64,000 bases of DNA from Eubacteriales bacterium (lineage in GTDB: Bacteria; Bacillota; Clostridia; Oscillospirales; SIG627): NCBI GenBank assembly GCA_045660745.1, contig JAZREJ010000041.1, forward strand, positions 12,656 through 76,655, written 5' to 3'. The translations under genes were made by a program, and so were the position numbers. Below, piece after piece: positions 39,568 to 56,914 of the stretch. How positions within the stretch are numbered: the stretch's first letter is position 1; each line of letters opens with the position of its first letter. Below the pieces are notes generated by a model that was not told where the DNA came from, made no database searches, and was given only the letters and a program-made list of their open reading frames with translations.

Positions 39568-39581
39568 TATGTGTCCCTCCC

Positions 39582-40271: not shown

Positions 40272-40291
40272 GGTTTTATTCCTTTCTTAAA

Positions 40292-41870: not shown

Positions 41871-41879
41871 GTCAACCTC

Positions 41880-42599
41880 TTAAAGATGCTTTATGCGTGG
41901 CATGTATTTTTTGATAAGTGCTTTGTTGTACTCAGCGCCTCCCTCAACGTTTCCGCTGAGGTATACGTCAGGCTTCACTGTTTTTGCGGCAAGGCGTGCG
42001 CCTTCCATCAAAACAGACTGCATAATATAGGATGAAGCAGCGGTGGAAACACTGCCCATCGGCACTTCAACGCCTTCAATATCAATGACTGCATCTCCGT
42101 GTGGCACGCAGTTGTCAATATAGATATCTGAGCACTCGTAAAGGAGTGGGGCGTCCTTTTTATCGGTAAAATAGTCGGAGGAGACTACTGATACGGTAAA
42201 GACACCGCTTGAACGCGAAACTTCTGCCATCTCGACGGGAGCGGCATTTTTGCCCGAGGTGGATATAACGAAAAGCATATCGCGCTCGGTTATGCAGTAG
42301 CGCTCAAAAACGCTGGGGGTTATCCCGCGCATCTTCTCCATTTTACTGCTTTTTGCCGCACCGTTGTGAAGCATGAGGTCGGTGTCGAGCACTGCACTTA
42401 CGTTTACAAGACCTCCTGCTCTGTAAAAGCAGTCGAGCCCGATAAGATGGGAATGTCCGCATCCGAAAACGTATATAATGCCGTCGTCTTCTATGACCTT
42501 CGCAACACGCTCTGCAACACTCTGCATCTTGTCATGCTGAGTGTTTTTTATTTTTGTGAGTACTTCTGTGATTTTTTCGTAATAAGTATCGAAAATCAT
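41880..42599 (-). CDS. SIS domain protein (UPF0309-like)
   Basis: 239 aa. Segment DGIIYVFGCGHSHLIGLDCFYRAGGL..FVISTSGKN. Confidence 0.75.
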   Translation of the reverse strand: MIFDTYYEKITEVLTKIKNTQHDKMQSVAERVAKVIEDDGIIYVFGCGHSHLIGLDCFYRAGGLVNVSAVLDTDLMLHNGAAKSSKMEKMRGITPSVFERYCITERDMLFVISTSGKNAAPVEMAEVSRSSGVFTVSVVSSDYFTDKKDAPLLYECSDIYIDNCVPHGDAVIDIEGVEVPMGSVSTAASSYIMQSVLMEGARLAAKTVKPDVYLSGNVEGGAEYNKALIKKYMPRIKHL

Positions 42600-43630
42600 T
42601 ATTTCTTAAGAACTCTTCTGTAGTTTTCACCAATCTTGTCCCAAAGAGCGAGGGGGTTCTCAGCTGCAACAACGGTGCCGAGACCTCCGCGGTAGGTCCA
42701 GGTAGCAAGACGGTCAACGCCCATAGATTCGTAAAGGTCAACAACGTGATCGACCTGAGAGAGATCTGCTGGGCTCTTGTTATAGCCCATGAGCCAACGC
42801 TCGGACTGCTTGCCGTACTTCTTTGCCATCTCAACTGTTCTCTTGGTGATGTCGATAAAGAAGCTTTCGGGGAGAGTCCAGTTGATGATGGTGGTGGAGA
42901 ATACGTCAAAATAGGGGCAGGAAGCAACCATATCCCAGTTATCGTAGCCGCGAAGCTCGGTAACGTAATAGGTGTTCAAGGTTGCGTGAACGCAACAGGT
43001 AATTTCAAGGTTGGGGTTGATCTCCTTGAGAGTCTTTGAGGTGTCGGAAAGGGTCTTGAGAGCCTCTCTCCAACGGAACTGCTTAACGTCATCATTCATG
43101 AACTTGGGCATTTCATAGCCGTAGTATTCCTCAAACTTCTTCATACATTCGGGGCAACGGCAAGCCCAGTCGTCACCTGCGCCGCCTGTGATGGATGCGT
43201 AGGACTTGGGATATGCGTAGTGGGGCTCATCCCAGAAGAATCCGTCAACCTCTGTCTCGCGAGCAAGCTTTACGCAAATTCTCGTGAAATAATCTCTGAA
43301 GGAATTGGTATTGAAGCAAGCGGCGTTGAGAACTTCACCTGTATAAGCGGAAACTTGTCTGTGGTGAATGTTGTTCTGAAGGAACAGGCTGACCTGTTCT
43401 CCACCGAAATACTTACCGATACCCCAGGTATCAGCGATAACGCGAAGTCCCATCTCGTGAGCCTTTTTAACGATGTTGTTGATATTGGGAAACCAGAAGT
43501 CCATGTCGAACTCTGTGATAGCGAGAATCACGGTATCACAGCCGTGCTCAAGCATCTCCTGAAAATCCTTTTCTGCATGCTCTACGTAGTTAAGTCCGTA
43601 GTAGCTGACAGCACAGTGCTTTATTGCCAT
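42599..43630 (-). CDS. cytoplasmic GH-like TIM-barrel protein of unknown specificity
   Basis: 343 aa with no signal peptide. Segment DGFFWDEPHY....WACRCPECMKKFEEYYG parallels the GH42 NE/CxCxxC region. Confidence 0.5.
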   Translation of the reverse strand: MAIKHCAVSYYGLNYVEHAEKDFQEMLEHGCDTVILAITEFDMDFWFPNINNIVKKAHEMGLRVIADTWGIGKYFGGEQVSLFLQNNIHHRQVSAYTGEVLNAACFNTNSFRDYFTRICVKLARETEVDGFFWDEPHYAYPKSYASITGGAGDDWACRCPECMKKFEEYYGYEMPKFMNDDVKQFRWREALKTLSDTSKTLKEINPNLEITCCVHATLNTYYVTELRGYDNWDMVASCPYFDVFSTTIINWTLPESFFIDITKRTVEMAKKYGKQSERWLMGYNKSPADLSQVDHVVDLYESMGVDRLATWTYRGGLGTVVAAENPLALWDKIGENYRRVLKK

Positions 43631-43776: not shown

Positions 43777-44535
43777 ATGTTTCCAAACAAAAAAACTCAA
43801 TATTATCGTTTAATTTCAGCCTTAGAGCTTGAATGGGAGCCTCGGTGCGAGCACGCACCCGAGCGTAATTTTCATGCTATTTCCTTTCGCATAAAAGGAA
43901 ACGCAGTTTTTGAGCATGGGAGCGAAAGTACCTCGGTAGGTGCGGGAGAAGTTGCATTTGTGCCCGCAGGATATTCCTACACACTTGACGAAAAGAGCAG
44001 AGCACATCTTTTCGTTATACATTTTGATACTGTTCCCGACAAGATATCGGGTCTTGAATCAATAAAAGTGGCAAATCCTCTTTGGTACGAGGAGCACTTC
44101 AGAATGCTACATCGTATATGGCAGAGAAAGGAAACGGGCTACCGCCTTGCGGCGACCTCGGTCTTTTACAGGATACTTGAGGAGCTGGAACGAGAGGGAG
44201 AGGAAAAAAAGCCTTGTACTAAAGATAGATTGTCGCGTGTTGTCGAGTATATACACGCAAACTATACTGACCCCACGCTTTCAATAACCAGACTTGCGGA
44301 AATGTACGGAGCAAGTTCCACGTATTTCAGAAGGATATTTAAGGAAAGTATGTCGTCTCTTCCGCTGCAGTACCTCAATAAGCTCAGGCTCAAGCGCGCA
44401 GAGGAGCTCTTGCGCTCGGGATATTATACAGTGGCGCAGGCGGCGGCTGAATCGGGATTTTCGGACGTTAAATACTTCTCAAGGTTTGTAAAAAAGATAA
44501 ACGGAGATGCCCCGTCGAGGCTGTGGAAGGTATAA
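43777..44535 (+). CDS. AraC family transcriptional regulator
   Basis: 252 aa. Cupin-like N-terminus and a C-terminal double HTH (..TLSITRLAEMYGASSTYFRRIFK..VAQAAAESGFSDVKYFSRFVKK). Confidence 0.85.
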   Translation: MFPNKKTQYYRLISALELEWEPRCEHAPERNFHAISFRIKGNAVFEHGSESTSVGAGEVAFVPAGYSYTLDEKSRAHLFVIHFDTVPDKISGLESIKVANPLWYEEHFRMLHRIWQRKETGYRLAATSVFYRILEELEREGEEKKPCTKDRLSRVVEYIHANYTDPTLSITRLAEMYGASSTYFRRIFKESMSSLPLQYLNKLRLKRAEELLRSGYYTVAQAAAESGFSDVKYFSRFVKKINGDAPSRLWKV

Positions 44536-45363
44536 TTATTTTGTATAATCATGCGGAGTCTTGCCTGTGACCTTGTAAAATGCTTTGTAAAAATTGGAGG
44601 ATGAGGAAAATCCGCACCGCTGTGCTATCTCCAGCTTGGACAGAGCCTCGGTTTTTAAAAGCGAGATTGCACGCTCGACCCTCTTTATTGTTATATATTC
44701 CGTTACGGTTATACCGTTGTATTTTTTGAAAAGCGAAGAAAAATAAGGCTCAGACAGAAAGGAAAGCTCGGCAAGTGCTTTAAGCGAAATCTTATCCTGA
44801 AGATTCTCGTTAATGTAACGAAGAGCCTTCTTGATAGCTGATATCTGAGACGTTTCAACACTTAGCTCCGCATTTTTGTCAATATAATCATACTCGCGAA
44901 CTATATAAACGAGTGCATGAAGCAGAAAAAATCTTGAGTTTATCTCATAGCAAGGAACCTTGTCACAAAGCTCCTTTTCAACACCGAGAATGAGTTCCGA
45001 AAGCTTTTTGTCTCTACCTATCCTGTTTTCAAAGCCATCACTGCGCGCGAAGAAAAGCTTCAAAAGCTCGGAGCTTTCCCAAAGAAGTCGCGGTTCAAAG
45101 TGAATGTTAAGTATTTCGGTGTCGCGTATTATTTCGGTGATGCAGTGTACCTCGTGGCTCCCGAAAAGAAATATATCGCCTTCACGGTATTGGTAAGTAT
45201 GTTCTCCTACCTTGTATATCCCTTCACCTTGTACGAAAAGAGATAGCTCACATTCTGTATGGTGGTGCTCTCGGTATTCCCTTTTTTCGGGGGATACGCA
45301 GGAGCGAAAGCTTTTAATAATGGGACCTGAGTTTTTGAGAATCGAGTATTCGCACTTTTTCAT
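44536..45363 (-). CDS. AraC family transcriptional regulator
   Basis: 275 aa. Cupin-like N-terminus (HHHTECELSLFVQGEG) and a C-terminal AraC HTH (IAQRCGFSSSSNFYKAFYKVTGKTPHDY). Confidence 0.85.
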   Translation of the reverse strand: MKKCEYSILKNSGPIIKSFRSCVSPEKREYREHHHTECELSLFVQGEGIYKVGEHTYQYREGDIFLFGSHEVHCITEIIRDTEILNIHFEPRLLWESSELLKLFFARSDGFENRIGRDKKLSELILGVEKELCDKVPCYEINSRFFLLHALVYIVREYDYIDKNAELSVETSQISAIKKALRYINENLQDKISLKALAELSFLSEPYFSSLFKKYNGITVTEYITIKRVERAISLLKTEALSKLEIAQRCGFSSSSNFYKAFYKVTGKTPHDYTK

Positions 45364-45482: not shown

Positions 45483-46850
45483 ATGGGACAGATAAAAGAA
45501 AGAATCAGCGAAAACACAAATATATGCTCCTCTCCGTCAGAGCTTAAAATAACGGATATAAGAGTGGCGAATCTCAACGGTGCTCCCAAGCACTGTCCAC
45601 TCATCAAAATATACACAAATCAGGGAATCGTTGGCTACGGAGAGCTTCGTGATGCGTCCAGTGCCACATATGCATTGATGCTCAAATCAAGGCTTATCGG
45701 AGAAAATCCCTGTAACGTGGATAAGCTTTTTCGCCGTATCAAGCAGTTCGGAGGTCCTTCCCGTCAGGGTGGCGGTGTATCGGGAATCGAAATTGCACTC
45801 TGGGACCTTGCGGGCAAGGCATGGGGTGTTCCTCTCTGGCAGATGCTGGGAGGTAAATTCCGCGATAAGGTGAGAGTTTACTGCGATACCGACGTTGAAG
45901 GCAAGCATACAGGTCGCGATATGGGACTTGCACTAAAAAAACGTATGGAGCAGGGCTTCACATTTCTTAAAATGGACCTCGGTATTGAAATGCTTCTTGA
46001 CGAACCCGGTACCCTCAACGCCCCCGGCGGCTTCCTTGAGGATATCAAGAAATATTCCATGAAGGCAATAAATCATCAGGCGGGCTCTATTGACCGTTCA
46101 CTCATGCTTGGCAAAAACTACGAGGTTTTTACCATTCCCCATTACGCAACGGGAATTCACGTTACCGAAAAGGGACTTGATATACTTGAGGATTATGTAA
46201 GACAGGTACGAGAAGTTATAGGCTACGAAATTCCTCTGGCGATAGATCATCTCGGACACATAGCAATAGAGGACTGTATAAGATTTTTACGCCGCCTTGA
46301 AAGGTATAACATTGCGTGGGTAGAGGATCTCACCCCATGGCACCTCACGAATCACTGGGAAAGAATGGCAAGCTCTGTTGCAGTACCCCTCTGCACCGGA
46401 GAGGACATATACCTCGCCGAAAATTTTGAGCCTCTTCTTGCATGTCACGGCGTTTCGGTGGTACAGCCCGACCTTTTGACCATTGGCGGAGCACTCGAAA
46501 CGAAAAAGCTTGGCGATATGTGTGAAAAGTACGGCGTGGCAATGGCACTTCACATGGCTGAAAGTCCCATTGCTTGTATGGCTGCGATCCATACTGCGGC
46601 AGCTCTTCAGAACGTTCTTGCCGTAGAATATCACTCGATAGACATTCCTTGGTGGAATGATCTTGCTCTCGGCATCGACAATCCTCTTTTCAAAGACGGA
46701 TTCGTTGACGTTCCGAACAAACCCGGGCTTGGAATCGACTCACTCAATGAGGAACTTATCGCAGAGCACATACACCCCGACTACCCCGGTCAGTGGGAGC
46801 CTACCGATAACTGGAACAACGAGTGGGCAAACGACAGAGAATGGAGTTAA
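45483..46850 (+). CDS. enolase-superfamily (mandelate racemase/muconate lactonizing enzyme) acid-sugar dehydratase-like protein
   Basis: 455 aa. Segment GVSGIEIALWDLAGKAWGVPLWQMLGG; metal-ligand contexts AIDHLGH, WVEDL, TGEDIY. Confidence 0.8.
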   Translation: MGQIKERISENTNICSSPSELKITDIRVANLNGAPKHCPLIKIYTNQGIVGYGELRDASSATYALMLKSRLIGENPCNVDKLFRRIKQFGGPSRQGGGVSGIEIALWDLAGKAWGVPLWQMLGGKFRDKVRVYCDTDVEGKHTGRDMGLALKKRMEQGFTFLKMDLGIEMLLDEPGTLNAPGGFLEDIKKYSMKAINHQAGSIDRSLMLGKNYEVFTIPHYATGIHVTEKGLDILEDYVRQVREVIGYEIPLAIDHLGHIAIEDCIRFLRRLERYNIAWVEDLTPWHLTNHWERMASSVAVPLCTGEDIYLAENFEPLLACHGVSVVQPDLLTIGGALETKKLGDMCEKYGVAMALHMAESPIACMAAIHTAAALQNVLAVEYHSIDIPWWNDLALGIDNPLFKDGFVDVPNKPGLGIDSLNEELIAEHIHPDYPGQWEPTDNWNNEWANDREWS

Positions 46851-46852
46851 TT

Positions 46853-47530
46853 ATGAAAATACGTTGGATAGGACAGGGAGGATATCTTCTGAGCGACAAC
46901 GACACTACGATTTGTATAGATCCATATATTTCGGATGCTGTCGAAAGGATCTCGGGCAAAAAGAGACTTGTAAAAGCACCGTTTCACCCGAGCGAGCTCA
47001 AAGCAAATGCCGTAATATGCACTCACGACCATCTTGATCACGTTGATACGGATGCCATACCTTTCATGAATGAGCTTTGCTTTTTCGCTCCCTCAAGCGC
47101 TGAAAAAACGATACGTTCGTGCGGTGTTACAGCTTATACTCAGTTTGACGTAGGGACAAGTGTAATGGTGGGAGAGTTTGAACTCACGGCGGTGTTTGCA
47201 GATCATACCGTTCCCGCAATAGGTGTTATCGTAAGACACAAGGACAGTACTCTTTTCTTTACGGGAGATACCTTCTACAATGAAAAGCTTATACATCAAG
47301 GTATTGATATTCTCTTTGTTTGCATCAACGGAAAGCTTGGTAATATGAACGTTTACGAGGCTATAAAGCTGGTAGGGGAAATCAACCCGAAGGTGGCGGT
47401 ACCCGCACACTACGGAATGTTTGCGGAAAACACAGAGGACCCCAAGAAATTTACGTCGGCTATTGAAAATGGTTTTGAAATGGAATATAATAAAGAATAC
47501 GAATGTGAGGAGTTGTTATGTTCGATTTGA
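46853..47530 (+). CDS. MBL-fold hydrolase (UlaG/lactonase-like)
   Basis: ORF track 46823..47530; start moved to ATG 46853 (MKIRWIGQGG). Motif THDHLDHVD. Confidence 0.75.
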   Translation: MKIRWIGQGGYLLSDNDTTICIDPYISDAVERISGKKRLVKAPFHPSELKANAVICTHDHLDHVDTDAIPFMNELCFFAPSSAEKTIRSCGVTAYTQFDVGTSVMVGEFELTAVFADHTVPAIGVIVRHKDSTLFFTGDTFYNEKLIHQGIDILFVCINGKLGNMNVYEAIKLVGEINPKVAVPAHYGMFAENTEDPKKFTSAIENGFEMEYNKEYECEELLCSI

Positions 47531-48249
47531 CAGGAAAAACGGCACTTGTAACCGGTGCGACTCAGGGAATCGGATTTGAAATCGCAAGGCTTCTTGCGTC
47601 ACATGGCGCAAAAGTGTTTGTGGCGGGCTCAAGAGACATTGAAAAATGCAAAAAGGCCTGTCTTGAAATTTCCGAAGCGCTCCCCGTTGTGGCAGACCTC
47701 ACCAGCCCCGACTGTGCCGAAAAATTATACGATATGACCGGAGACGTTGATATACTTGTACTCAACGCATCCATTCAGTACAAGCGTGAGTGGGACTGCT
47801 TTTCGGATGAGGAGTATGATGCGCAATGGAATTGCAACTTTAAAAGCTCCTACCTTCTCATAAAGAAGTACAGTGAGGGAATGAAGGAAAAGGGATTCGG
47901 AAGAATTGTGACTGTCGGAAGTGTAAATCAATACAGTCAACACAAGGAGCTTTCTATGTACGGAGTGACGAAGGCTGCACAGATGAAGCTTGTGCAAAAT
48001 CTTGCGCCACTACTCGCACCACACGGAATCACAGTAAACAATATTGCTCCCGGAGTTGTGGAAACTCCAAGAAACGACGACGTGCTCTCAGACGAGTGCT
48101 TAAAAGAAAAGATACAGGAGAAGATTCCCTGCGGGTTCATTGCGACTCCGAGGGATATCGCACCCGCAGTTTTACTTCTCGTTTCAAATGAAGGAAGATA
48201 TATCACAGGAAGCGACCTGATAATTGACGGAGGTATGCATCTAAAATGA
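47518..48249 (+). CDS. SDR family oxidoreductase
   Basis: 243 aa. Motifs TGATQGIG and YGVTKAA (YxxxK). Confidence 0.9.
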   Translation: MFDLTGKTALVTGATQGIGFEIARLLASHGAKVFVAGSRDIEKCKKACLEISEALPVVADLTSPDCAEKLYDMTGDVDILVLNASIQYKREWDCFSDEEYDAQWNCNFKSSYLLIKKYSEGMKEKGFGRIVTVGSVNQYSQHKELSMYGVTKAAQMKLVQNLAPLLAPHGITVNNIAPGVVETPRNDDVLSDECLKEKIQEKIPCGFIATPRDIAPAVLLLVSNEGRYITGSDLIIDGGMHLK

Positions 48250-49154
48250 ATTTTAACAATCGTGACGAAATAATCGCACTCACCCCCGAGTGGACAGGAG
48301 AAAGACTCCCCGACGGACGTCCCAAAGTGGATGAAAAATACTTAAAGGCACTGAAAAATCTCACTCTTGAGGAGGTTTGGAAGCCTATATTCGTAAAGGG
48401 GTATGAAAGCCAGTTTGAGGGCAGACTTCAGACCCTTCACAACGACGGACGCAAGCTTATAGGCAGAGCTGTGACCGCAACCTACTGTCCGTTCCGTCCC
48501 GACCTTAACGAGGTTGTTAAAGAGACAGGCAAGAGTGAGGGTAGAACGGGTACCTACAATCAATGGGTGATTGACTCACTCGGAGAATACGACGTGCCTG
48601 TTATTGATATGTACGACAAGATATACAAGGGCACTTTTCTCGGCGGAAACCTCACCACCGCTCTCAAGAATAAGACGAAGAATGAAAACGGTGGAGCTGT
48701 TATCTGGGGCGGTATCCGTGACACAGAGCAGATGCTCAAGGTTGAAAATACACAGGTATACTACCGAGGCATCGACCCCACTCCCATCCGTGACTTTATA
48801 ATGACAGGCTTTAATACCGTGACGAGAATCGGAAACGCCGTGTGCCTGCCGGGTGACGTTGTATTCGGTGCGGGAGGAGGCGTACTCTTTATTCCGAGTC
48901 ACCTTGTAGAAGATGTTGTGGGGGGCGCGGCAAAGACTCAGGTGAAGGATATGTTCGGCTTTGAGATGATAGCGCAAAACAAGTTCACCACAGCACAAAT
49001 TGACCGTAACACCTGGACTCGCGAAATGCTTGATTTACTTCTCGAATTTATCGAAAAGGATGACAGAGCGGCAGAGTACCGCGAGCTTGACTGGTCACAC
49101 GAATACTATCTTGCCGACAACGGAGATCCGACGGATACACAATCTGCACTCTAA
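48246..49154 (+). CDS. RraA/HMG-aldolase-like family protein
   Basis: 302 aa. Segment GGNLTTALKNKTKNENGGAVIWGGIRDTEQ and ...LPGDVVFGAGGGVLFIP match the RraA/4-hydroxy-4-methyl-2-oxoglutarate aldolase fold pattern. Confidence 0.7.
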   Translation: MNFNNRDEIIALTPEWTGERLPDGRPKVDEKYLKALKNLTLEEVWKPIFVKGYESQFEGRLQTLHNDGRKLIGRAVTATYCPFRPDLNEVVKETGKSEGRTGTYNQWVIDSLGEYDVPVIDMYDKIYKGTFLGGNLTTALKNKTKNENGGAVIWGGIRDTEQMLKVENTQVYYRGIDPTPIRDFIMTGFNTVTRIGNAVCLPGDVVFGAGGGVLFIPSHLVEDVVGGAAKTQVKDMFGFEMIAQNKFTTAQIDRNTWTREMLDLLLEFIEKDDRAAEYRELDWSHEYYLADNGDPTDTQSAL

Positions 49155-49165
49155 AGGAGATAAAA

Positions 49166-49732
49166 ATGGATATTTACAAGCTTTTACAGGACAGAAGAAC
49201 AGTAAGAAAATTCAAAAACGAGCCTGTGGACAAATCGCTTCTCATAAAATTTGTCGACATGGCACGTATCGCACCGAGTGCTGCAAATCTTCAATCCATA
49301 AAATACGCCATAGTAACGGACGAGGTGACTCGGCGTGAAATATTTCCCTACATCAAGTATGCGGGCTACACTCCCGAATGGGTAAACACCTTTGACATAA
49401 CTCCGACCTCCTTCATCGTACTTCTCAATGACACAGAAGTGCGTCCTACTACAAAGGCGGAGGTGGATGCGGGAATCTCTCTCATGTCACTAACACTCAC
49501 AGCGGAGGCTGAAGGGCTTGCAAGCTGTATAATCGGCTCGGTCAATCGCGCAAAGGTCAAAGAAATACTTGCACTTTCCGAAAAGCTTGATATACTCTAT
49601 CTTATAGGAATAGGACATCCCGCGCAGACTAACAGGCTTTCGGATAGTGAAGAAAAGGTAAAATACAAGCTTGATGAGGATGGCAACTTTGCTGTTCCTA
49701 AAAGAACGCTTGACGAAATACTTGTGAGGTAA
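49166..49732 (+). CDS. nitroreductase family protein
   Basis: 188 aa. Segments RRTVRKFKNEPV...APSAANLQSIKY. Confidence 0.8.
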   Translation: MDIYKLLQDRRTVRKFKNEPVDKSLLIKFVDMARIAPSAANLQSIKYAIVTDEVTRREIFPYIKYAGYTPEWVNTFDITPTSFIVLLNDTEVRPTTKAEVDAGISLMSLTLTAEAEGLASCIIGSVNRAKVKEILALSEKLDILYLIGIGHPAQTNRLSDSEEKVKYKLDEDGNFAVPKRTLDEILVR

Positions 49733-49735: not shown

Positions 49736-51805
49736 ATGAATAAACAGGAAAAACTTACATTCTTAAAAAACAACCCCGTTTTCTGGTCAAGACTCGGATT
49801 CAGTTATGACCCGCCAAGACGTGGCAAGGACGGGAAACCGATAGTATTTACTCCCGATCTTACGGAGGACTCGAGCTTTCACCGTGACTTTACTGACATA
49901 GGCGTTAAGATTCACACAAACATCCTTCATCTCGGATGGATGGGCATTGACGACTATGATTATTCGGTAACAGATGCTGTGCTTGAAGAAATCTTTAAAA
50001 ATGACGACATTTACTACATTCCACGTATAAAGCTCAACGTACCCGTTGACTGGTGCCGTGAAAATCCGGAGGACGTATTTGTATACTGGGAGGGGCCAAG
50101 AGATGCGGAAGAGATTCGTGCGCTCGTTGACACACCTAAGCACGACTGGTTTGGATATACTGCCCCCAAGGGATATTACAAGGCGGGTGACTTCATTGAT
50201 GACCGCCCGAACGTGGGCGGCGTCATTTCACGCCAGAGCTTTTCCTCCGAGAAGTGGCTGAGTGATGCGGGAGAGGCGCTCAGACGCCTTGTTGACAGAC
50301 TTGAAAACGGCAAATACGCCGATAGAATAATCGGCTATCATATTGCCTTCGGCGTTTCCGGAGAAGCCATTCTTTGGGGACGTGCCGACTATCACTACGG
50401 TGACTACGGAATAAAGAATACAGAAAACTTTTATGCGTGGGCAGAAAAGAAATACGGCTCAAAGGAGGCGCTTCTCAAGGCTTGGGATGGGGATCTCACC
50501 CTTCCTTCTCCCGACGAGCGCTATTCAAGATTTGATAAGACTGAGGAATTTCTCCGAGGTGACAGAATCGGACGTGTCAGCCGTGATATGGATGAGTTTA
50601 CAAGTGCTTCCTGTGCAAATGCCATAGAGTATTTTTCAAGGGTAATAAAGAGCTTTGCCCCTGACAAGCTTATCGGTGCGTTCTATGGCTACTTCATGCA
50701 CACCGACAATCCCAACTACGCTGGACATCTTGAGCTTCAAAGACTTCTTGACGGAGATCTTGTTGACTTTTTTGCCGCTCCCAAGATATATCACAGATGC
50801 GGTCCCGGCGAGCCGGGCGGTGAGATGTGCCCCGTTCAGTCGGTAAACCTCAAAAAACTTTGGGTAGACGAGGCTGACAACCGTACACATCTTGCCAGCG
50901 ATGACGTTGCGGCATGGCTTTGCCGTGATATGAATGATACACGCTGGGTTATGTGGCGCGAGCTTTCAAAGAACATCGCCCACGATTCAGGCTTTTGGTG
51001 GATGGACCTTGGCGGACGCTGGTTCAAATCACGCGAGATACTGGATGAGGTCAAGCATATGCTTGATGTTTCCTCCTATCTGCGCACCTTGCCCCATAAG
51101 TCTCCCGCAGATGCTTTAATACTTGTTGACGAAAAGTGTATCTACTCCATGGGAATCTCAAAAAATCTTCGTGTAGGCTTTATGGAGGACTTCGTGTGCG
51201 AGACGAGAAAGTCGGGTGTGATTGCCGACGTTTACAGACTCTCCGACATACGCACAATTGACCTTTCAAAATACAAGCTTATCGTATTCGCCTACACGTT
51301 TGAAATTTCTCAAGAGGACAAGCTCTTCCTTGAAAGTCATATTTCAAATGACGCAACCATTTCCTATCACTGGGCGGCCGGTGCTATCAAGGACGGCAAG
51401 GTATCTCTTGAAAACGTGAAGGATTTCACAGGGTTTGACGTTATACAAGTCGAGCGTGACAAATACGATTTTCCCAAGCTTACTGTTGAAAATGCTGAAG
51501 CCTTTTCGGACAAGGGCTTTATAAAGGGCAACAGACTTATTTTCACAGAGCCTTTTATCACACACTCTGAAATAAGAAAAATGGGAGAGATTGCGGGATG
51601 TCGCATCGTTTGTGACAACGGGCTTATCCTTTACGGGGACAACCGAATCACGGGTGTATTTTCCAAGGAAAAGCTTACTGGTAAGGTAAAGCTTTCGGAC
51701 AAGGCTTGCTGGCGTGAGGAATTTTCGGGTAAGGTATTTACACAGACCGATGAAGTTGACCTTGAGCAGTTTGATGCAAATATTGCGGTATTTATACGCA
51801 AATAA
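49736..51805 (+). CDS. distant GH42-like glycoside hydrolase candidate with trimerisation-like C-terminal region
   Basis: 689 aa with no signal peptide. N-terminal TIM-like region and a central block ALILVDEKCIY...LSKYKLIVFAY resembling the GH42 middle domain. Confidence 0.5.
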   Translation: MNKQEKLTFLKNNPVFWSRLGFSYDPPRRGKDGKPIVFTPDLTEDSSFHRDFTDIGVKIHTNILHLGWMGIDDYDYSVTDAVLEEIFKNDDIYYIPRIKLNVPVDWCRENPEDVFVYWEGPRDAEEIRALVDTPKHDWFGYTAPKGYYKAGDFIDDRPNVGGVISRQSFSSEKWLSDAGEALRRLVDRLENGKYADRIIGYHIAFGVSGEAILWGRADYHYGDYGIKNTENFYAWAEKKYGSKEALLKAWDGDLTLPSPDERYSRFDKTEEFLRGDRIGRVSRDMDEFTSASCANAIEYFSRVIKSFAPDKLIGAFYGYFMHTDNPNYAGHLELQRLLDGDLVDFFAAPKIYHRCGPGEPGGEMCPVQSVNLKKLWVDEADNRTHLASDDVAAWLCRDMNDTRWVMWRELSKNIAHDSGFWWMDLGGRWFKSREILDEVKHMLDVSSYLRTLPHKSPADALILVDEKCIYSMGISKNLRVGFMEDFVCETRKSGVIADVYRLSDIRTIDLSKYKLIVFAYTFEISQEDKLFLESHISNDATISYHWAAGAIKDGKVSLENVKDFTGFDVIQVERDKYDFPKLTVENAEAFSDKGFIKGNRLIFTEPFITHSEIRKMGEIAGCRIVCDNGLILYGDNRITGVFSKEKLTGKVKLSDKACWREEFSGKVFTQTDEVDLEQFDANIAVFIRK

Positions 51806-51810
51806 TAGGG

Positions 51811-51837
51811 AAAGAGGCTTTGAAAAGCCTCTTTTTC
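51811..51837 (+). terminator. rho-independent terminator
   Basis: AAAGAGGCTT / AAGCCTCTTT with loop TGAA, then TT. Confidence 0.8.
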
Positions 51838-51870
51838 TACTTTAAAGAGAGTCAATTTTTTACCATTCCG

Positions 51871-51899
51871 TTGACAAATAATCTTTGGTATGGTACACT
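51871..51899 (+). promoter_or_regulatory. sigma-A promoter for the GH42 pair
   Basis: TTGACA 51871-51876, 17 nt, TACACT 51894-51899 preceded by TGG. Confidence 0.6.
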
Positions 51900-51935: not shown

Positions 51936-53990
51936 ATGAAACTATTTACAGAATTCTATCCCTACGGCACACAGTATCACAGAGCGCCCACACCTCTCCC
52001 CGAGGAATGGGAGGGCGATATTAAGACTATTGCTGAAAAGGGGTATACACATATACAGTTCCGTCCTCAGTGGAGATGTCACGAGAGGGTACGCGGGAAA
52101 TACGTTTGGGATGATCTTGACAGGCTGTTCGAGCTTGCGGAAAAGTACAATATGAAGGTCGTTTTGAAGCCGATGCTTGAAAACGCTCCCGACTACGTGT
52201 ATACAAAGCTTGATGGAACGCGTATAAGCTTCCGCGGTCTGCCCATCGTTCCTCATGCCCCCGCGGCATACTACGTTGGCGGTTGGCTGCCTTGCTTTGA
52301 CAACCCCAAGGTAAGAAAGGCTGCCGCAAAATTTGTACGTGAGCTTACAAACAGATACAAGGACCATCCAAGCCTTTGGTTCTACAACGCGTGGAACGAG
52401 CCGAGAAGCCGTCCTATGGGACAGTGCTGCTGTAAGCATTCGGTGAAAAATTATCAGAATTGGTTGCGCGAGCGCTACGGCACGATAGAAAATCTCAACC
52501 GCACCTTTGGAAAGGAGTGGGAGAGCTTCAAGACTATCATTCCCCCTCACTCAAACGGATGCTACGTTGAAATGTTCTTATGGCGCCGGTGGGCGGCATA
52601 TGCACTTTCGGAGCACGTTGGTCTTGTTGCAGACGCGATACGCGAGGCTGACCCAAATGCCCGCGTAATGTGTCATGTCGGCGCATCCGCAGTTCATCAG
52701 GATCCTGTGTCCGATACGTCGGATGACTTCCTCAATTTCTCGAAGGTGGATTGGTACGGAACCTCTATGTGGATACCCTTCCGTCCCGAGACTCCCGCCG
52801 CATATAACGAGCTTTTCTATCAGGCAGCATGGCTCAGACGAGTTGACAAGAACTGGCAGTGCCATGAATTTTATCCGAATCAGGGTAACTGGTGGACTGA
52901 GGGCAAGCCATCGTTTGTGGAGCAGTCGATTCTTATGACGCTTGCGTCGGGTGCAAGAGGACTTACCTTCTGGCAGTACAGAAGCGAGCGCTTTGGTAAG
53001 GAATCAAACGGCTGGGGAATGAGAAATATCGACGGAAGTCCCACACCGAGAAGCGAGCGCTGTGACAGGGTTGCGGATTTTCTTAAAAACAACCCCGAAA
53101 TTGCACTTTCGGATTATAAAAAGCCTGAGGTTGCAGTATACTTCGATATTGAAAACGACCTTTTGATGAAGCTTCAGAAGATGGGCATCACAGGTGGCAA
53201 TCCCGAGGGCGGCAATCTAAACGAGACTTCCAACTACAAAACTGCATTCAAAGGCGCTCATACAACCCTGCGACGCATGGGACATACCGCTGATTACGTA
53301 GTAAACGGAGATGATCTCTCCTCCTATAAGTTAGTGACCGTAACTTCTCTTGAAATGACCGACGAATATGAAAGAGCCGCGTTTGAAGAGTATGTCAGAA
53401 ACGGTGGTATACTTTACATAGAGTACCCGTTTGCTTGCCGCGACGAAAAGACATGGGTATCTCCAACCCGTCCGAACCTCGGATTTGATGCCCTTACCGG
53501 CTGTCGCGAAGTACACAGAGTTGACTTTTCTTCATATGTTTCAAACGTTATAAAATTCAATGACGGACATGAGGAAACAGCAGCAGGCTGGCATATCACG
53601 CTCGAACCTGTTGCGGATGATGTAAAGGTGCTTGCTAATTGGAAGGATGGCGGTGTTGCTGTTGTTGAGAGACAGGTTGGGCGCGGTAAAGTTATCGTTT
53701 CTGCGGGTAGCTTCTCATCGTTTGCTCAGGAAAACTCCACCGAGATGATTCCCTCGCTTTACTACAAGCTCATGCTTTACGCAGGCCTTGAGATAAACGA
53801 AAGCCACGTATGGACTCTCTCAAGAGTATCGGATGAATTTGAATACCGCTTCTTCTTCAACACAAGTTATGATGATGCAACGGTTGAAAACTGCGGTGAG
53901 CTGATATTTGCTTCCGAGGAATGTACCGTTTCCGACAGCGGAACAGTTCTTCCTCACCAGACCTCCGCAATATACAGAATAAAGCTTTAA
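51936..53990 (+). CDS. GH42 family beta-galactosidase-like glycoside hydrolase
   Basis: ORF track 51885..53990; start moved to ATG 51936 behind GGAGG. Segments YPYGTQYHRAPTP, FYNAWNEPRS, LTFWQYRSERFGKESNGWG. Confidence 0.88.
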   Translation: MKLFTEFYPYGTQYHRAPTPLPEEWEGDIKTIAEKGYTHIQFRPQWRCHERVRGKYVWDDLDRLFELAEKYNMKVVLKPMLENAPDYVYTKLDGTRISFRGLPIVPHAPAAYYVGGWLPCFDNPKVRKAAAKFVRELTNRYKDHPSLWFYNAWNEPRSRPMGQCCCKHSVKNYQNWLRERYGTIENLNRTFGKEWESFKTIIPPHSNGCYVEMFLWRRWAAYALSEHVGLVADAIREADPNARVMCHVGASAVHQDPVSDTSDDFLNFSKVDWYGTSMWIPFRPETPAAYNELFYQAAWLRRVDKNWQCHEFYPNQGNWWTEGKPSFVEQSILMTLASGARGLTFWQYRSERFGKESNGWGMRNIDGSPTPRSERCDRVADFLKNNPEIALSDYKKPEVAVYFDIENDLLMKLQKMGITGGNPEGGNLNETSNYKTAFKGAHTTLRRMGHTADYVVNGDDLSSYKLVTVTSLEMTDEYERAAFEEYVRNGGILYIEYPFACRDEKTWVSPTRPNLGFDALTGCREVHRVDFSSYVSNVIKFNDGHEETAAGWHITLEPVADDVKVLANWKDGGVAVVERQVGRGKVIVSAGSFSSFAQENSTEMIPSLYYKLMLYAGLEINESHVWTLSRVSDEFEYRFFFNTSYDDATVENCGELIFASEECTVSDSGTVLPHQTSAIYRIKL

Positions 53991-53999: not shown

Positions 54000-56060
54000 A
54001 TGGAAAATATTTTTACAGATATATTCCCTTACGGTACTCAGTACCACAGAGCCCCTACTCCACTTCCCGAGGAATGGGAGGAAGACTTTCAAAACATAAA
54101 AAACAACGGATATACACACGTTCAGTTTCGTCCGCAGTGGAGATGGCATGAGAGGGTAAGAGGACAGTATACCTGGGATGACCTCGACCGTCTTTTCGAT
54201 CTTGCAGACGAATATGATATAAAGGTGGTTTTGAAGCCGATGCTTGAAAATGCCCCCGACTATGTCTATCATGAGCTTGGAGGTACTCGAATAGGCTTTA
54301 GAGGACACCCTATAGGTCCTATTTCACACGCAGCTTTTTATGTTGGCGGTTGGCTTCCTTGTTTTGATAATCCCGAGGTTGCAAAGGCTGCGGGAGATTT
54401 CGTCTTCGAGCTTGTATCAAGATATAAAAACCGTAAGAGTCTTTGGTTCTACAATGCATGGAATGAGCCGAGAAGCCGCCCCCTCGGACAGTGCACTTGT
54501 CCTCATTCAGTAAAGAAATACCGAGAATTTTTGAAAAACCGATTCGGTACTGTTGAAAACCTCAACCGTATTTACGGAAAGGCTTGGGAAAGCTTTGAGA
54601 CGATCACACCTCCTCTGTCAAGCTCTGATTACGTTGAACTGTTTTTGTGGAGAAGATGGGCGGCACAAGCGGTAGCAGAGCATATTTCCATTGCATCCGA
54701 AGCAATAAGACGTGCTGACCCGAATGCCAAGGTAATGTGTCACGTCGGTGCATCGTCTGTACGTCAGGACCCGGCTTGCGACACCTCCGACGATTTCCAA
54801 AACAAAGAAACCGTTGATTGGTACGGCACCTCCATGTGGATTCCAATGAACCCTGAGAATCCGCTTGAATATGACAGCACTCTTATTCAATCGTCCTGGC
54901 TCCACAGGGTAGATAAAAACTGGATGTGCCACGAATTCTACCCGAATCAGGGTAACTGGTGGCCCGAGGCAAAGCCCGAATATATCGAGCAAGCAGCTCT
55001 TATGGCGATATCCGTCGGATGCCGCGGACTTACCTTCTGGCAGTACAGAAGTGAGCGCTTTGGAGAAGAGTCAAACGGATGGGGAATGAGAAATATCAAC
55101 GGAAGTGCAACTCCGAGAAGCGAGCGCTTTGACCGACTCGGAAGAATACTTTCGACCGAGAAGGATCTTGCAAAAACTGATTACGTCGCACCTCCCGTCG
55201 CGCTCTACTTTGATATGGAAAACGATCTTCAGATGAGATTGCAAACTATAAACTCACCCACGGGTGAGGAGCTTGGACGCGTGCAACCCTCATACTCTCA
55301 CGCAACAAAGACCTCTGTAAACGGTGCTCACGCAACCCTCAGACGTCTTGGATATACGGCGGATTTCGTCGTAAAGGGGGATGACCTATCTCGCTATAAG
55401 GCGGTCGTTGTGTCCTCACTTGAAATGACAACAAACGTGGAGCGTGAAGCGTTTGAAAACTACGTTAAAAACGGTGGTGTTCTCTACATAGAATATCCCT
55501 TCGCTTGCCGTGATGAGAGAACTTGGGTATCTCCCAATCGTCCGAATTCGGGCTTTGAAGCACTCACCGGATGCCTTGAAGCGCACAGAGTTGAGTTCTC
55601 AAAGAGAATGACAAACAAGATGATATTCGAGGACGGCAGAATTGAAGAGACTGCGGGATGGCACGTAACTCTTGAGCCTATTGCAGACGACGTAAAGATT
55701 CTTGCACGCTGGGAGGAAGGTGGCGTTGCCGCGATCGAGCGTAAGGTAGGAAATGGAAAGGTCATTGTTTCTGGTGGAAACTTTTCAATATGGTCACACG
55801 ATCACTCGACAGAGGCTATTCCCTCACTCTTCGCAAAATCACTTGAGGATGCGGGTATCCGTGTCGACACCTCTCCTCTTTGGGTAATCGAGCGTGAATC
55901 GGATGAATATCTCTTCCGATTTGTGTTCAACACAGGAGACGAAAGTGTCGTGTGTGACAAGCTTGGTGAGATAGCATTCTCAGCAATTGAAATCACCGAA
56001 GGAAACGGAAAGATCACACTTCCTCCTCAAACGAGCGTAGTGTTTAAGATCAAAAAATGA
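54000..56060 (+). CDS. GH42 family beta-galactosidase-like glycoside hydrolase (tandem paralog)
   Basis: 686 aa, collinear with the preceding gene along its whole length (same YGTQYHRAPTPLPEEWE, FYNAWNEPRSRP and WQYRSERFG blocks). Confidence 0.88.
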   Translation: MENIFTDIFPYGTQYHRAPTPLPEEWEEDFQNIKNNGYTHVQFRPQWRWHERVRGQYTWDDLDRLFDLADEYDIKVVLKPMLENAPDYVYHELGGTRIGFRGHPIGPISHAAFYVGGWLPCFDNPEVAKAAGDFVFELVSRYKNRKSLWFYNAWNEPRSRPLGQCTCPHSVKKYREFLKNRFGTVENLNRIYGKAWESFETITPPLSSSDYVELFLWRRWAAQAVAEHISIASEAIRRADPNAKVMCHVGASSVRQDPACDTSDDFQNKETVDWYGTSMWIPMNPENPLEYDSTLIQSSWLHRVDKNWMCHEFYPNQGNWWPEAKPEYIEQAALMAISVGCRGLTFWQYRSERFGEESNGWGMRNINGSATPRSERFDRLGRILSTEKDLAKTDYVAPPVALYFDMENDLQMRLQTINSPTGEELGRVQPSYSHATKTSVNGAHATLRRLGYTADFVVKGDDLSRYKAVVVSSLEMTTNVEREAFENYVKNGGVLYIEYPFACRDERTWVSPNRPNSGFEALTGCLEAHRVEFSKRMTNKMIFEDGRIEETAGWHVTLEPIADDVKILARWEEGGVAAIERKVGNGKVIVSGGNFSIWSHDHSTEAIPSLFAKSLEDAGIRVDTSPLWVIERESDEYLFRFVFNTGDESVVCDKLGEIAFSAIEITEGNGKITLPPQTSVVFKIKK

Positions 56061-56215: not shown

Positions 56216-56249
56216 GAAAAAACACACGACATTTGTGTCGTGTGTTTTG
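56216..56249 (-). terminator. rho-independent terminator of glpP
   Basis: ACACACGACA (56222-56231) / TGTCGTGTGT (56236-56245). Plus A6 at 56216-56221 gives a U-run on the minus strand. Confidence 0.75.
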
Positions 56250-56782: not shown

Positions 56783-56794
56783 AAAACCCTCCAA

Positions 56795-56907: not shown

Positions 56908-56914
56908 GAATAAT

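Follow-up and report, generated by a model that had tools for sequence, protein, structure and literature searches.

Does the compact gene array at positions 45483-49732 of a 64,000-nucleotide stretch of DNA from an Eubacteriales bacterium (the whole stretch is referred to here as the window) encode an oxidative sugar route without phosphorylation that ends in an aldolase of the RraA fold, as a sequence-only reading had proposed? The features on which the answer depends are the following.

44536..45363, minus strand: divergent AraC-family regulator (Pfam cupin/AraC_binding and HTH_18)
45483..46850, plus strand: enolase-superfamily acid-sugar dehydratase candidate, 455 aa (Pfam MR_MLE_N and MR_MLE_C)
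46853..47530, plus strand: metallo-beta-lactamase (MBL)-fold hydrolase, UPF0173-like, candidate lactonase (Pfam Lactamase_B_2/3)
47518..48249, plus strand: classical SDR oxidoreductase (Pfam adh_short)
48246..49154, plus strand: candidate Mg-dependent lyase of the RraA fold, 302 aa, extended by helices at the C terminus (Pfam PF03737, E 1.6e-10)
49166..49732, plus strand: nitroreductase-family flavoprotein, accessory module gene 1 (Pfam)
49736..51805, plus strand: candidate glycosidase of 689 aa from an unannotated family, three-domain fold resembling GH42 (AF2 and Foldseek)
51806..51839, plus strand: terminator-like hairpin followed by a T-run, immediately 3' of the 689-aa gene (RNA fold)
51871..51899, plus strand: promoter-like element ahead of the GH42 pair (consensus scan)
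51936..53990, plus strand: divergent GH42-family glycosidase (Pfam GH42 and GH42M)
54000..56060, plus strand: second divergent GH42-family glycosidase (Pfam GH42 and GH42M)
56219..56248, plus strand: terminator-like hairpin closing the gene array (13-pair stem)

The five genes from the dehydratase to the nitroreductase were confirmed on the plus strand in the order, and with the coordinates and overlaps, originally described, by open reading frames, Pfam and NCBIfam domains and junction sequences. The dehydratase stop at 46850 is followed by the ATG of the MBL gene at 46853, preceded by GGAG (an alternative GTG start lies at 46823); the MBL and SDR genes overlap by 13 nt, and the SDR and RraA genes by the tetranucleotide ATGA. 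We refer to 45483-49154 as the core and to the nitroreductase, the 689-aa protein and the two GH42 genes as the accessory module. The overall arrangement is found again in another genome (L086), indicating that the juxtaposition seen in the window is not due to chance. None of the enzymes of the locus scored above the curated NCBIfam threshold of any characterised family.

Conservation of the core and the separate accessory module

We surveyed 85 related Clostridia loci containing an RraA-like gene, including a subset of 51 with sufficient flanking sequence (full-flank loci). The RraA-like gene occurs together with an SDR gene in 72 of the 85 loci, with a dehydratase in 58 and with an MBL gene in 33; in 44, an AraC homologue (35-53% identity) precedes the core in divergent orientation. 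Among the full-flank loci, 50 encode a dehydratase, 48 an SDR orthologue and 26 a lactonase. In the Clostridia loci the gene of the enolase-type dehydratase neighbours that of the RraA-like protein. The dehydratase is exclusively of the enolase type in 42 of them, exclusively of the UxuA type in six and of both types in two, and the lactonase is either an MBL protein (21 loci) or a PF10282 beta-propeller (5 loci), the two never occurring together. Such non-orthologous replacement, of enolase-type by UxuA-type enzymes and of MBL proteins by PF10282 proteins, supports the dehydratase and lactonase roles originally assigned to the window proteins. Collectively, the dehydratase, the SDR, the lactonase-type hydrolase and the RraA-like protein are a conserved functional unit.

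GH10-like genes lie within the core in 30 of the 51 full-flank loci. The loci with a UxuA-type dehydratase are flanked by GH38 alpha-mannosidases, which suggests a coherent route from mannose via mannonate and KDG to the RraA-like enzyme. The RraA/dehydratase pair is kept even in distant SusC/SusD loci of the Bacteroidota type (30-40% identity for RraA and 43-52% for the dehydratase), where both proteins carry export signals, the dehydratase gene adjoins the RraA gene in 51 of 80 loci and some loci carry tandem copies of the pair; in a haloarchaeal mannanase cluster, manD is likewise paired with an RraA gene. No characterisation of the dehydratase/RraA-like pair was found in the literature searched. 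The absence of a kinase and of Eda, claimed for the operon, holds in the window but not in the family. In about five relatives (L025, L042, L044, L046 and L062), Eda, KdgK-like genes or both lie beside the core, so that "kinase-free" is not a general description, and some of the Bacteroidota-type loci also carry KdgK-like genes.

The nitroreductase and the GH42-type genes, previously read as one unit with the sugar route, are a separate accessory module that was joined downstream of the core in the lineage of the window. These genes are missing from nearly all other core loci, nitroreductase homologues (37-49%) being present in only four of the 85 (in L042 and L044, beside the Eda/KdgK-like genes), and in two loci that lack the core (L087 and L088) a nitroreductase gene precedes genes for a 690-aa protein and for GH42 proteins. 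Furthermore, of the three genes described as GH42-type, 51936-53990 and 54000-56060 match Pfam GH42, whereas 49736-51805 is GH42-like only at the fold level. Its 689-aa product had no sequence match in Pfam or PDB and has 598 homologues, for which "hypothetical protein" is the only name among the matches listed; its AF2 model (pLDDT 91) matched GH42 beta-galactosidases in Foldseek (E about 1e-21, TM about 0.6, 10-13% identity).

The two downstream proteins share the Pfam GH42 and GH42M domains, and the 689-aa protein the three-domain fold, with GH42 beta-galactosidases and alpha-L-arabinopyranosidases. However, the 689-aa protein is undetectable as GH42 by sequence, and the pair shows very low similarity to characterised members, the nearest solved GH42 structure matching the second protein with only 54 bits (E 1e-13). 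Given this distance, galactose or an arabinose-type sugar, the substrate originally deduced from these genes, cannot be inferred.

The operon had been thought to run on into all three genes, but the terminator-like hairpin at 51806-51839 (dG -19.5 kcal/mol, z -3.26, rounded -3.3) separates the 689-aa gene from the last two. Together with the promoter-like element (TTGACA-17-TACACT with TG; 10 of 12 positions match, by consensus only) and an RBS between 51805 and 51936, this hairpin suggests that the last two GH42 genes may form their own transcription unit. The open reading frame of the first of them reaches to TTG 51885; its likely start is ATG 51936, which follows GGAGG and was assigned from the paralogue and a 683-aa orthologue in L086.

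The dehydratase and the RraA-fold protein

The nearest relatives of the dehydratase are acid-sugar dehydratases and not a non-sugar family, the top matches being the galactonate dehydratase model in NCBIfam (195 bits against a cutoff of 311) and 2qq6 in PDB (1.6e-52). Its highest scores are with the galactonate, gluconate and mannonate dehydratase models, these aldonate models far exceeding the aldarate ones (talarate/galactarate, 92 bits; glucarate, 28 bits). With DgoD, the archaeal gluconate/galactonate dehydratase, ManD and 2qq6, it has the domain pair in common, and its predicted metal ligands and His/Asp positions align with theirs and are kept in 46 orthologues. It differs from DgoD/ManD-type enzymes in scoring under every equivalog threshold, in about 30 inserted residues and in a C-terminal tail that is conserved, and has D-H-x-G-H where 2qq6 has D-x-H. 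The MBL protein produced matches to NCBIfam PRK00685 (86 bits, below the cutoff) and to PDB 7e3v (1e-9).

The AF2 model of the RraA-like protein (pLDDT 92) retrieved 5ir2, 3k4i, 5x15 and 3noj as top Foldseek matches, 5ir2 being the best, and a profile search of PDB gave 5x15 (2.4e-32) and 3noj (3e-17). The closest solved relative by profile is thus RraAS2 of Streptomyces coelicolor (5x15), which aligns over residues 55-289, including the C-terminal extension, and is described as an inhibitor of RNase ES; we know of no enzymatic role or sugar-acid context for it.

More informative for chemistry is HMG/CHA aldolase (LigK/ProA/GalC; 3noj), a class II pyruvate aldolase with the same alpha-beta-beta-alpha fold. 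In the profile alignment with 3noj, its essential Arg and metal-binding Asp (R123-D124) correspond to R158-D159 of the window protein, and this Arg-Asp pair is kept in 23 of 26 diverse RraA-like members. RraA-fold enzymes act via a pyruvate-enolate intermediate in C3-C4 cleavage, for example in oxaloacetate decarboxylation, and the window protein is expected to share this intermediate with HMG/CHA aldolase. Nevertheless, the two are only about 16% identical, and the NCBIfam ligK/PcmE model yields 24 bits against a cutoff of 304. Asp102 of the aldolase is replaced by Gly, Lys147 stands opposite Asp183 as read from the profile alignment, and the counterpart of Glu199, the second metal ligand, has no mapped position. 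At 302 versus 238 aa, the window protein is also longer, by a region at the N terminus and helices at the C terminus, and its context is carbohydrate rather than aromatic catabolism. The aldolase motifs, reportedly defined by Mazurkewich et al. in 2014, are D-X20-R-D and G-X20-R-D-X2-E/D; that of the window clade, G-X23-R-D-T-E-Q, equals neither, the spacing being 23 instead of 20 residues. The fold and the retained catalytic Arg-Asp speak for the proposed aldolase identity, but neither motif is matched exactly. Aldolase is one of several chemistries open to the RraA fold, FlDet being a dehydratase/decarboxylase.

A candidate route and its alternatives

The explanation that we tentatively favour, at a little under an even chance, is that the core is a conserved catabolic module around the tightly coupled dehydratase/RraA-fold pair, constituting an oxidative non-phosphorylative route that ends in a retro-aldol step. 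The divergent AraC gene would regulate the core, and the glycosidases of the accessory module would supply the sugar. Because the presence of a lactonase implies a lactone intermediate and hence oxidation at C1, the SDR would convert the freed sugar to the lactone, the ring of which would be opened by the MBL-fold hydrolase; the dehydratase would then turn the aldonate into a 2-keto-3-deoxy-aldonate. The RraA-fold enzyme would bind this 2-oxo acid via Mg2+ and Arg158-Asp159 and, most likely by retro-aldol cleavage, release pyruvate and an aldehyde. The npED, Dahms, L-rhamnose LRA1-4 and archaeal mannose routes likewise run through a dehydrogenase, a lactonase, a dehydratase of the enolase superfamily or the UxuA type, and a lyase, and the window operon is also kinase-free. 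Known non-phosphorylative pathways employ aldolases of the DHDPS/NAL or HpcH type and lactonases of the SMP30 or amidohydrolase kind, whereas the candidates here are of the RraA and MBL folds and the hosts are strict gut/rumen anaerobes.

Besides the sub-threshold family scores and the inexact motif match, several observations count against this route. Any lactonase is absent from 25 of the 51 full-flank loci; the top NCBIfam match of the SDR, glucose 1-dehydrogenase, is sub-threshold, and its PDB profile matches are generic (FabG, gluconate 5-DH, glucose 1-DH); Eda and KdgK-like genes beside the core would be superfluous next to an RraA-like enzyme that itself cleaves the 2-keto-3-deoxy acid; and an oxidative, ATP-poor route would probably be energetically unattractive for a fermenter. 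What has stood of the original proposal is the functional unit with its dehydratase and lactonase roles, and not the aldolase chemistry or the identity of the sugar; a kinase-free route does not extend across the family.

An unlikely alternative keeps the substrate class but changes the last step: the RraA-fold enzyme would be a FlDet-like dehydratase (with or without decarboxylation) or would take an aldarate-derived 2-keto-3-deoxy acid, which would make the module an oxidative uronate route. The SDR would be a uronate dehydrogenase, the lactonase would act on an aldarolactone, the enolase-type enzyme would be an aldarate dehydratase and the RraA-like protein would form 2-oxoglutarate semialdehyde. 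FlDet of Flavobacterium sp. UMI-01, an RraA-family protein compared here by description, turns 2-keto-3-deoxy-hexarate into alpha-ketoglutarate semialdehyde, is stimulated by Mg2+ and likewise belongs to a polysaccharide-utilisation setting; moreover, the hexuronate genes UxaC, UxuA, KdgK and Eda, as well as GH10-like genes, recur near the core, and glucuronoxylan might be the source. However, FlDet (237 aa) is hexarate-specific and inactive on KDG, its gene adjoins an aldehyde dehydrogenase gene, which the window operon lacks, and the window dehydratase favours aldonate over aldarate models.

Improbable, in our estimate, is a diketo-hydrolase route that takes a sugar acid as its starting point, in which the SDR would oxidise the C4 hydroxyl after dehydration and the RraA-fold protein, in place of an FAH-family hydrolase, would hydrolyse the 2,4-diketo-3-deoxy acid to pyruvate and a short acid, by analogy with L-fucose, L-rhamnose and pentose route III. 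It would accommodate the invariant triad of dehydratase, SDR and RraA and the frequent lack of a lactonase; an NCBIfam model of the FAH family, PRK12764, picks up the RraA-like protein through an RraA-like region of the model (profile positions 289-473), and C3-C4 cleavage via pyruvate enolate is known for the fold. Yet the alternation of two unrelated lactonase types is left unexplained, the SDR is absent from the periplasmic pairs and the RraA fold is not known to support hydrolase activity. Pathways with an SDR 4-dehydrogenase do exist, as PMC6336799 and PMC11199699 describe.

Slightly less probable still is a reductive uronate route of the fungal type, in which an L-aldonate, formed from a uronate by the SDR, would be dehydrated by the enolase-type enzyme and an RraA aldolase would yield pyruvate and L-glyceraldehyde. 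Such a route might better fit fermentative redox balance, uronate genes recur nearby and the L-galactonate dehydratase of fungi belongs to the enolase superfamily and is similar in size, but the lactonases would be superfluous and the GH38/UxuA-type loci suggest a neutral hexose.

Finally, we give very little credence to an RraA-fold protein that acts on no small 2-oxo acid, be it a carbohydrate-active enzyme like HLB5 (5ir2, the best structural match, encoded in a cluster that also contains two xylanases, and reported in a preprint to be active on CMC and Miscanthus, in keeping with the GH10-like genes inside core loci) or a non-catalytic regulator like E. coli RraA, since the Arg-Asp pair is retained, coupling to the dehydratase is very tight across phyla even in loci without a glycosidase, the preprint's "cellulase" claim comes with no proposed mechanism and export of an RNase regulator would make no sense.

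The dehydratase/RraA-fold pair is widespread, and if the favoured oxidative route is correct, this operon of a gut Clostridia member would convert sugars released by neighbouring glycosidases to pyruvate without phosphorylation.

Operon genes and the predicted active sites of their products

The gene order on the plus strand that had been read from the sequence alone agrees with the ORF listing and the profile searches, and the tight junctions are likewise borne out: a 2-nt gap separates the dehydratase and hydrolase genes, the hydrolase and SDR genes overlap by 13 nt, and the SDR and RraA-like genes share an ATGA overlap.

Genes of the operon and its divergent regulator
44536-45363, divergent from the operon: AraC-family regulator (profile search)
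45483-46850, +: enolase-superfamily protein, candidate dehydratase (MR_MLE_N and MR_MLE_C)
46853-47530, +: metallo-beta-lactamase (MBL)-fold hydrolase (UPF0173-like)
47518-48249, +: classical SDR (adh_short)
48246-49154, +: RraA-like protein (PF03737, E 1.6e-10)
49166-49732, +: nitroreductase-family protein (PF00881)

The candidate dehydratase combines an MR_MLE N-terminal capping domain (PF02746, 2.1e-11) with a C-terminal barrel (PF13378, 1e-42), and its residues D255, E281, E307, D329 and H357 fall on the corresponding motifs of 2qq6 in an alignment. Across 46 orthologues, D255 and H357 never vary, and E281, E307 and D329 lie in conserved motifs, so that, with roles assigned by homology, the three carboxylate metal ligands and the His-Asp general base all appear to be present. 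There was no equivalog-level match among the NCBIfam models for DgoD, gluconate/galactonate dehydratase, ManD, AraD and RhamD (194.6 bits against a cutoff of 311 for galactonate dehydratase DgoD, 155 against 750 for the archaeal gluconate/galactonate dehydratase, 120 against 550 for ManD and 108 against 650 for arabinonate dehydratase). Nevertheless, the concern that the enzyme might group with a characterised non-sugar family was not substantiated: its best curated matches, all of them sub-threshold, are acid-sugar dehydratases, and aldarate dehydratases and non-sugar families score far lower. Its closest structure is 2QQ6, the function of which is unassigned, and 2O56, 2POZ, 3RCY and 2OX4 are also among the closest; a literature search on these five entries found nothing relevant.

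The top NCBIfam match of the SDR is the glucose 1-dehydrogenase subfamily (179 against a cutoff of 215), and single-sequence and profile searches of the PDB did not separate FabG, gluconate 5-dehydrogenase, glucose 1-dehydrogenase and KduD as guides to its substrate. An NADP(H) preference deduced from the Ser-Arg pair following beta-strand 2 was dropped, since the orthologues do not share this Arg. NCBIfam and PDB searches with the MBL-fold UPF0173-like protein detected no characterised sugar-lactonase homologue, and the literature on UPF0173 lactonases yielded nothing useful.

The RraA-like protein was modelled with AF2 at a pLDDT of 92, and a Foldseek search seeded with this model returned RraA-family structures as all of the top 26 matches. 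These include HLB5 (5ir2), PSPTO_3204 (3k4i), Streptomyces coelicolor RraAS2 (5x15), yeast Yer010c (2c5q) and the HMG/CHA aldolase 3noj (E 3.6e-12); the family profile matched 5x15 at 2.4e-32 and 3noj at 3e-17. In the profile alignment, Gly101-Asp102 and Arg123-Asp124 of 3noj correspond to G133-G134 and R158-D159, respectively, of the window protein. In HMG/CHA aldolase, Arg123 is essential and stabilises the pyruvate enolate, and Asp124 and Glu199 are metal ligands (PMC5065237). The Arg-Asp pair is kept in 23 of 26 diverse family members and G133, the equivalent of the pocket-lining Gly101, is invariant; the alignment to 3noj ends at residue 184, short of the second metal ligand Glu199. Over the aligned part, the protein does not lack the metal- and pyruvate-binding residues, a deficiency that would have told against the aldolase proposed in the sequence-only reading.

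Mazurkewich and colleagues are said to have described, in 2014, the metal-binding motif as either D-X20-R-D or G-X20-R-D-X2-E/D. The window protein has G134-X23-R158-D159-T-E161-Q162 and its close relatives G-X21, such that the clade as a whole carries Gly at the first motif position with a spacing of 21-23 residues; among more distant relatives, the canonical D-X20-R-D is found in 11, whereas the motif begins with S or A in seven others. The protein therefore appears to keep the catalytic core and yet is an exact fit to neither motif. The NCBIfam models ligK_PcmE and PRK09262 scored below threshold (23.7 bits against 304.5 and 21.4 against 179, respectively). These comparisons are compatible with aldolase activity, short of proof.

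Two precedents widen the range of possible functions. FlDet (LC519890) is an RraA-family 2-keto-3-deoxy-hexarate dehydratase/decarboxylase; its type of context includes an adjacent 2-oxoglutarate semialdehyde dehydrogenase, whereas the window operon contains no aldehyde dehydrogenase. HLB5 (PDB 5ir2), the top structural match of the RraA-like protein, comes from a Parabacteroides cluster with two xylanases, has an RraA fold and was deposited and reported as a "novel cellulase" (bioRxiv 10.1101/516542). Instead of being a genuine cellulase, HLB5 may be another metabolic enzyme of the RraA fold encoded within a glycan locus.

Conservation of the core and of the dehydratase/RraA pair

At E <= 1e-5 we found 3,823 relatives of the RraA-like protein, named in their sources solely as "RraA family protein" or "regulator of RNase E"; an exact-sequence look-up found neither this protein nor the 689-aa protein encoded further downstream on record. 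In a one-genome-per-species collection, relatives occur at no fewer than 570 of 600 pattern-matched stretches. The best 80 of these loci encode RraA-like proteins 78-90% identical to that of the window and come nearly all from gut or rumen Clostridia, including Oscillospiraceae, Christensenellaceae, Acutalibacteraceae and Acetatifactor, with one cultured strain among them, Ructibacterium gallinarum DSM 107454. Window proteins were then compared by tblastn with 85 Clostridia loci carrying the RraA-like gene.

Co-occurrence of window proteins with the RraA-like gene (85 loci, identity to the window protein)
SDR: 72/85, mostly 50-70%
Dehydratase: 58/85, mostly 77-84%
AraC regulator: 44/85, mostly 35-53%
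MBL hydrolase: 33/85, mostly 55-60%
Nitroreductase: 4/85, 37-49%
689-aa protein: 2/85, 50%
GH42: 0/85

When all ORFs of these neighbourhoods were clustered and annotated with Pfam, further recurrent neighbours emerged: a GH10-like protein (37 loci), a short UxuA-type dehydratase (19), a PF10282 beta-propeller lactonase (10), UxaC (7), GH39 (6), the KDPG aldolase Eda (5) and a KdgK-like 2-keto-3-deoxy-acid kinase (4), in addition to an esterase, a GH13-like protein, GH38 alpha-mannosidases and GH2. Among the 51 loci whose flanks reach at least 4 kb upstream and 2.5 kb downstream, a dehydratase is present in 50 (enolase-type only in 42, UxuA-type only in six, both in two) and an SDR in 48. A lactonase is encoded in 26 of the 51, either the MBL type (21) or the propeller type (5), never together. 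These counts identify the dehydratase, the SDR and the RraA-like protein as the invariant unit, to which the lactonase is an optional and the glycosidases a variable addition.

The GH10-like protein is an intracellular, divergent member of about 444 aa (Pfam, 83 bits) with WEVINE and ITEV motifs; its gene lies at variable positions within the core operon in 30 of the 51 loci, with none in the window. The substrate of this protein may be the key to the sugar of the core module.

Across loci L006-L085, which span Clostridia families, identity to the window is 78-90% for the RraA-like protein and mostly 77-84% for the dehydratase, and 35-70% for the SDR, MBL and AraC proteins. The higher identity of the first two suggests, as far as sequence comparison goes, either an unusually strong constraint on the pair or its lateral spread.

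The pair recurs far outside Clostridia. Many RraA-like relatives at 30-42% identity carry N-terminal signal peptides, and alignment of such relatives retrieved 80 metagenomic loci of the SusC/SusD type. In 51 of the 80, the RraA gene adjoins an enolase-superfamily homologue that is 43-52% identical to the window dehydratase over its full length; the usual order is SusC-SusD-RraA-dehydratase, followed by an SBF-family transporter. Of 45 full-length dehydratase homologues, 42 bear the canonical Tat motif S/T-R-R-x-F-L-K, and other neighbours include Tat-signal GFO/IDH/MocA oxidoreductases, a Tat-signal UxuA-like protein, and FGGY and KdgK-like kinases. Furthermore, a figure legend on a haloarchaeal mannanase cluster pairs manD with an RraA-family gene. 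Recurrence in the SusC/SusD loci and the haloarchaeal cluster marks the dehydratase/RraA pair as an ancient, tightly coupled unit. To go by the export signals, the pair apparently works where soluble NAD(P) and ATP are absent, which fits two successive metal-dependent lyase-type reactions. In the environmental loci (L089-L168, e.g., L101, L109, L111, L116 and L118), the pair is sometimes duplicated in tandem (RraA-ENOL-RraA-ENOL), and many of them are devoid of any glycosidase.

The glycosidase module and surrounding genes

Downstream of the core, the sequence-only reading had placed three GH42-type genes. Two of these, 51936-53990 and 54000-56060, match the Pfam GH42 catalytic and trimerisation domains, but the first, 49736-51805, is GH42-like at the level of the fold only. 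This gene encodes the 689-aa protein, for which Pfam, NCBIfam and PDB searches gave no sequence match and a relaxed Pfam search (E <= 10) gave noise; its AF2 model (pLDDT 91) aligns structurally with GH42 beta-galactosidases and with related members of clan GH-A (E ~1e-21, TM ~0.6, 10-13% identity). The two true GH42 proteins score just 54 bits against the nearest solved GH42, and therefore their specificity is not readable from the family name. The galactose or arabinose substrate formerly deduced from GH42 membership is accordingly unsupported, given the distance to characterised GH42 enzymes and the absence of the GH42 module from the other core loci. The divergent GH42 genes are lineage-specific additions from which the sugar is not inferable.

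Hairpins in the glycosidase module
51806-51839: terminator-like hairpin with T-run after the 689-aa gene (dG -19.5 kcal/mol, z -3.3)
56219-56248: strong hairpin closing the gene array

A promoter-like element and a good RBS lie between the first hairpin and the ATG at 51936; given these signals, the last two GH42 genes may have a transcript of their own or be expressed by read-through. The complete layout of the window, including the upstream SIS/PfkB operon, recurs in locus L086. In L087 and L088, the block of nitroreductase, 690-aa protein and two GH42 genes follows an aldose 1-epimerase and other genes, with the core absent, which assigns the nitroreductase to the glycosidase module and not to the sugar-acid core. 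The co-transcribed nitroreductase, previously unexplained, thus acquires a place. Homologues at 37-49% identity lie beside the core in L025, L042, L044 and L068, so that a protein of this family recurs where sugar acids are handled; in L042 the gene is flanked by Eda on one side and the KdgK-like gene on the other, and in L044 it directly follows both.

Several other neighbourhoods of the window deserve mention. A divergent six-gene operon (38491-43630, minus strand) encodes a GFO/IDH/MocA oxidoreductase, a 229-aa protein, an SIS protein, a ribokinase-like PfkB kinase, a second SIS protein and a 343-aa protein, the 229-aa and 343-aa products having no Pfam matches; synteny with L086, a locus that ends within the 229-aa gene, extends over no fewer than the five core-proximal genes. 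A second AraC-type gene occupies 43777-44535. The region 33534-38149 (minus strand) has a low GC content (32-34% versus ~45% elsewhere) and contains seven ORFs, five without a Pfam match and the others encoding an ECF-type sigma factor and a DUF4367 protein; the region may have been acquired, or may be a cluster of genes for surface proteins. A putative catabolic cluster at 22985-28021 (plus strand) encodes an MBL-fold protein, an MFS transporter, a PHP-domain protein, a xylose-isomerase-like TIM barrel and an Amidohydro_2 protein, and 28212-31213 (plus strand) an 878-aa BlaR1-type M56 peptidase sensor whose C-terminal domain is IseA-like; the 122-aa ORF ahead of it may encode its BlaI-type repressor. 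Finally, convergent with the GH42 genes, 56252-60953 (minus strand) encodes a GlpP-type glycerol-3-phosphate antiterminator, malic enzyme, an MFS transporter and an Ldh_2-family dehydrogenase with L-sulfolactate dehydrogenase as its best sub-threshold match; a link of these genes to the aldehyde and pyruvate products of the operon is possible.

A proposed sugar-acid pathway with an RraA-fold enzyme

The most economical scheme in which each conserved part has a use is the four-step, non-phosphorylative oxidative route of the sequence-only reading: the SDR would oxidise an aldose to the lactone, the lactonase would open it to the aldonate, the dehydratase would turn the aldonate into the 2-keto-3-deoxy-aldonate, and the RraA-fold enzyme, with Mg2+ and Arg158/Asp159, would cleave the latter into pyruvate and an aldehyde. 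The strongest new support for this scheme comes from the replacement of the dehydratase and the lactonase each by unrelated families, and from the coherent enzyme set of the UxuA-type loci. In these, GH38 would free mannose, the SDR would convert it to the lactone, the propeller lactonase would yield mannonate, and UxuA would produce KDG, a 2-keto-3-deoxy acid on which the RraA-like enzyme would act. The surroundings of the RraA-like gene, including UxaC-SDR-UxuA loci and adjacent KdgK and Eda, converge on KDG-type intermediates. That the RraA-like enzyme acts on the sugar-acid product of the dehydratase is probable; the full scheme with an aldolase we put forward tentatively, as a serious contender with slightly less than an even chance.

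The absence of a kinase and of Eda, noted in the sequence-only reading, holds for the window itself: no 2-keto-3-deoxy-acid kinase or KDPG-type aldolase was detected across its 64 kb, and the only PfkB protein, considered as a hidden KdgK, was ruled out as ribokinase-like. It does not hold for the relatives, as L025, L042, L044, L046 and L062 have Eda and/or KdgK-like genes next to the core. With KdgK and Eda both close by, an aldolase for KDG would seem redundant, and the RraA-like enzyme may instead perform other chemistry on the 2-keto-3-deoxy acid, namely dehydration, retro-aldol C4 epimerisation, or hydrolysis of a diketo acid after oxidation by the SDR. A broader proposal, which we consider conceivable but on balance rather doubtful, is that the pair is an ancient module that would need only a divalent metal and neither NAD(P) nor ATP, and hence would be usable both in the cytoplasm of Clostridia and, via Tat/Sec, in the periplasm of Bacteroidota beside an SBF-family transporter. 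Its reaction could be that of a new RraA-fold 2-keto-3-deoxy-aldonate aldolase or, where KdgK and Eda adjoin, a retro-aldol C4 epimerisation funnelling KDGal-type products into the KDG pathway.

Sugar routes that are oxidative and non-phosphorylative are well established. The novelty of the present case lies in the candidates of the RraA and MBL folds for two steps, in hosts that are strict gut anaerobes (rubrerythrin and a Fur-family regulator are also encoded in the window), and in the cross-phylum, partly exported dehydratase/RraA pair. Literature searches combining RraA with the enolase superfamily, xylan, mannonate dehydratase and gut operons retrieved no characterisation of the module or of an RraA-fold 2-keto-3-deoxy-aldonate lyase; what they did yield of use was the haloarchaeal figure legend and the papers on FlDet and HLB5.

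RraA-like proteins are found in all domains of life, and to our knowledge most have no known physiological substrate. The window locus and its relatives give one large subfamily a defined, testable biochemical context, directly beside a sugar-acid dehydratase in glycan-utilisation loci of gut and rumen Clostridia and environmental Bacteroidota-type organisms, and the cultured carrier R. gallinarum DSM 107454 (L084) makes experiments feasible. Should other chemistry be found, it would be a new reaction for the RraA fold. If the aldolase reading is true, it would add a new fold to the 2-keto-3-deoxy-aldonate aldolases, reveal an oxidative, non-phosphorylative sugar route in strict gut anaerobes, and change pathway reconstruction for many uncultured gut species in which these proteins are now "RraA family protein" or "regulator of RNase E".
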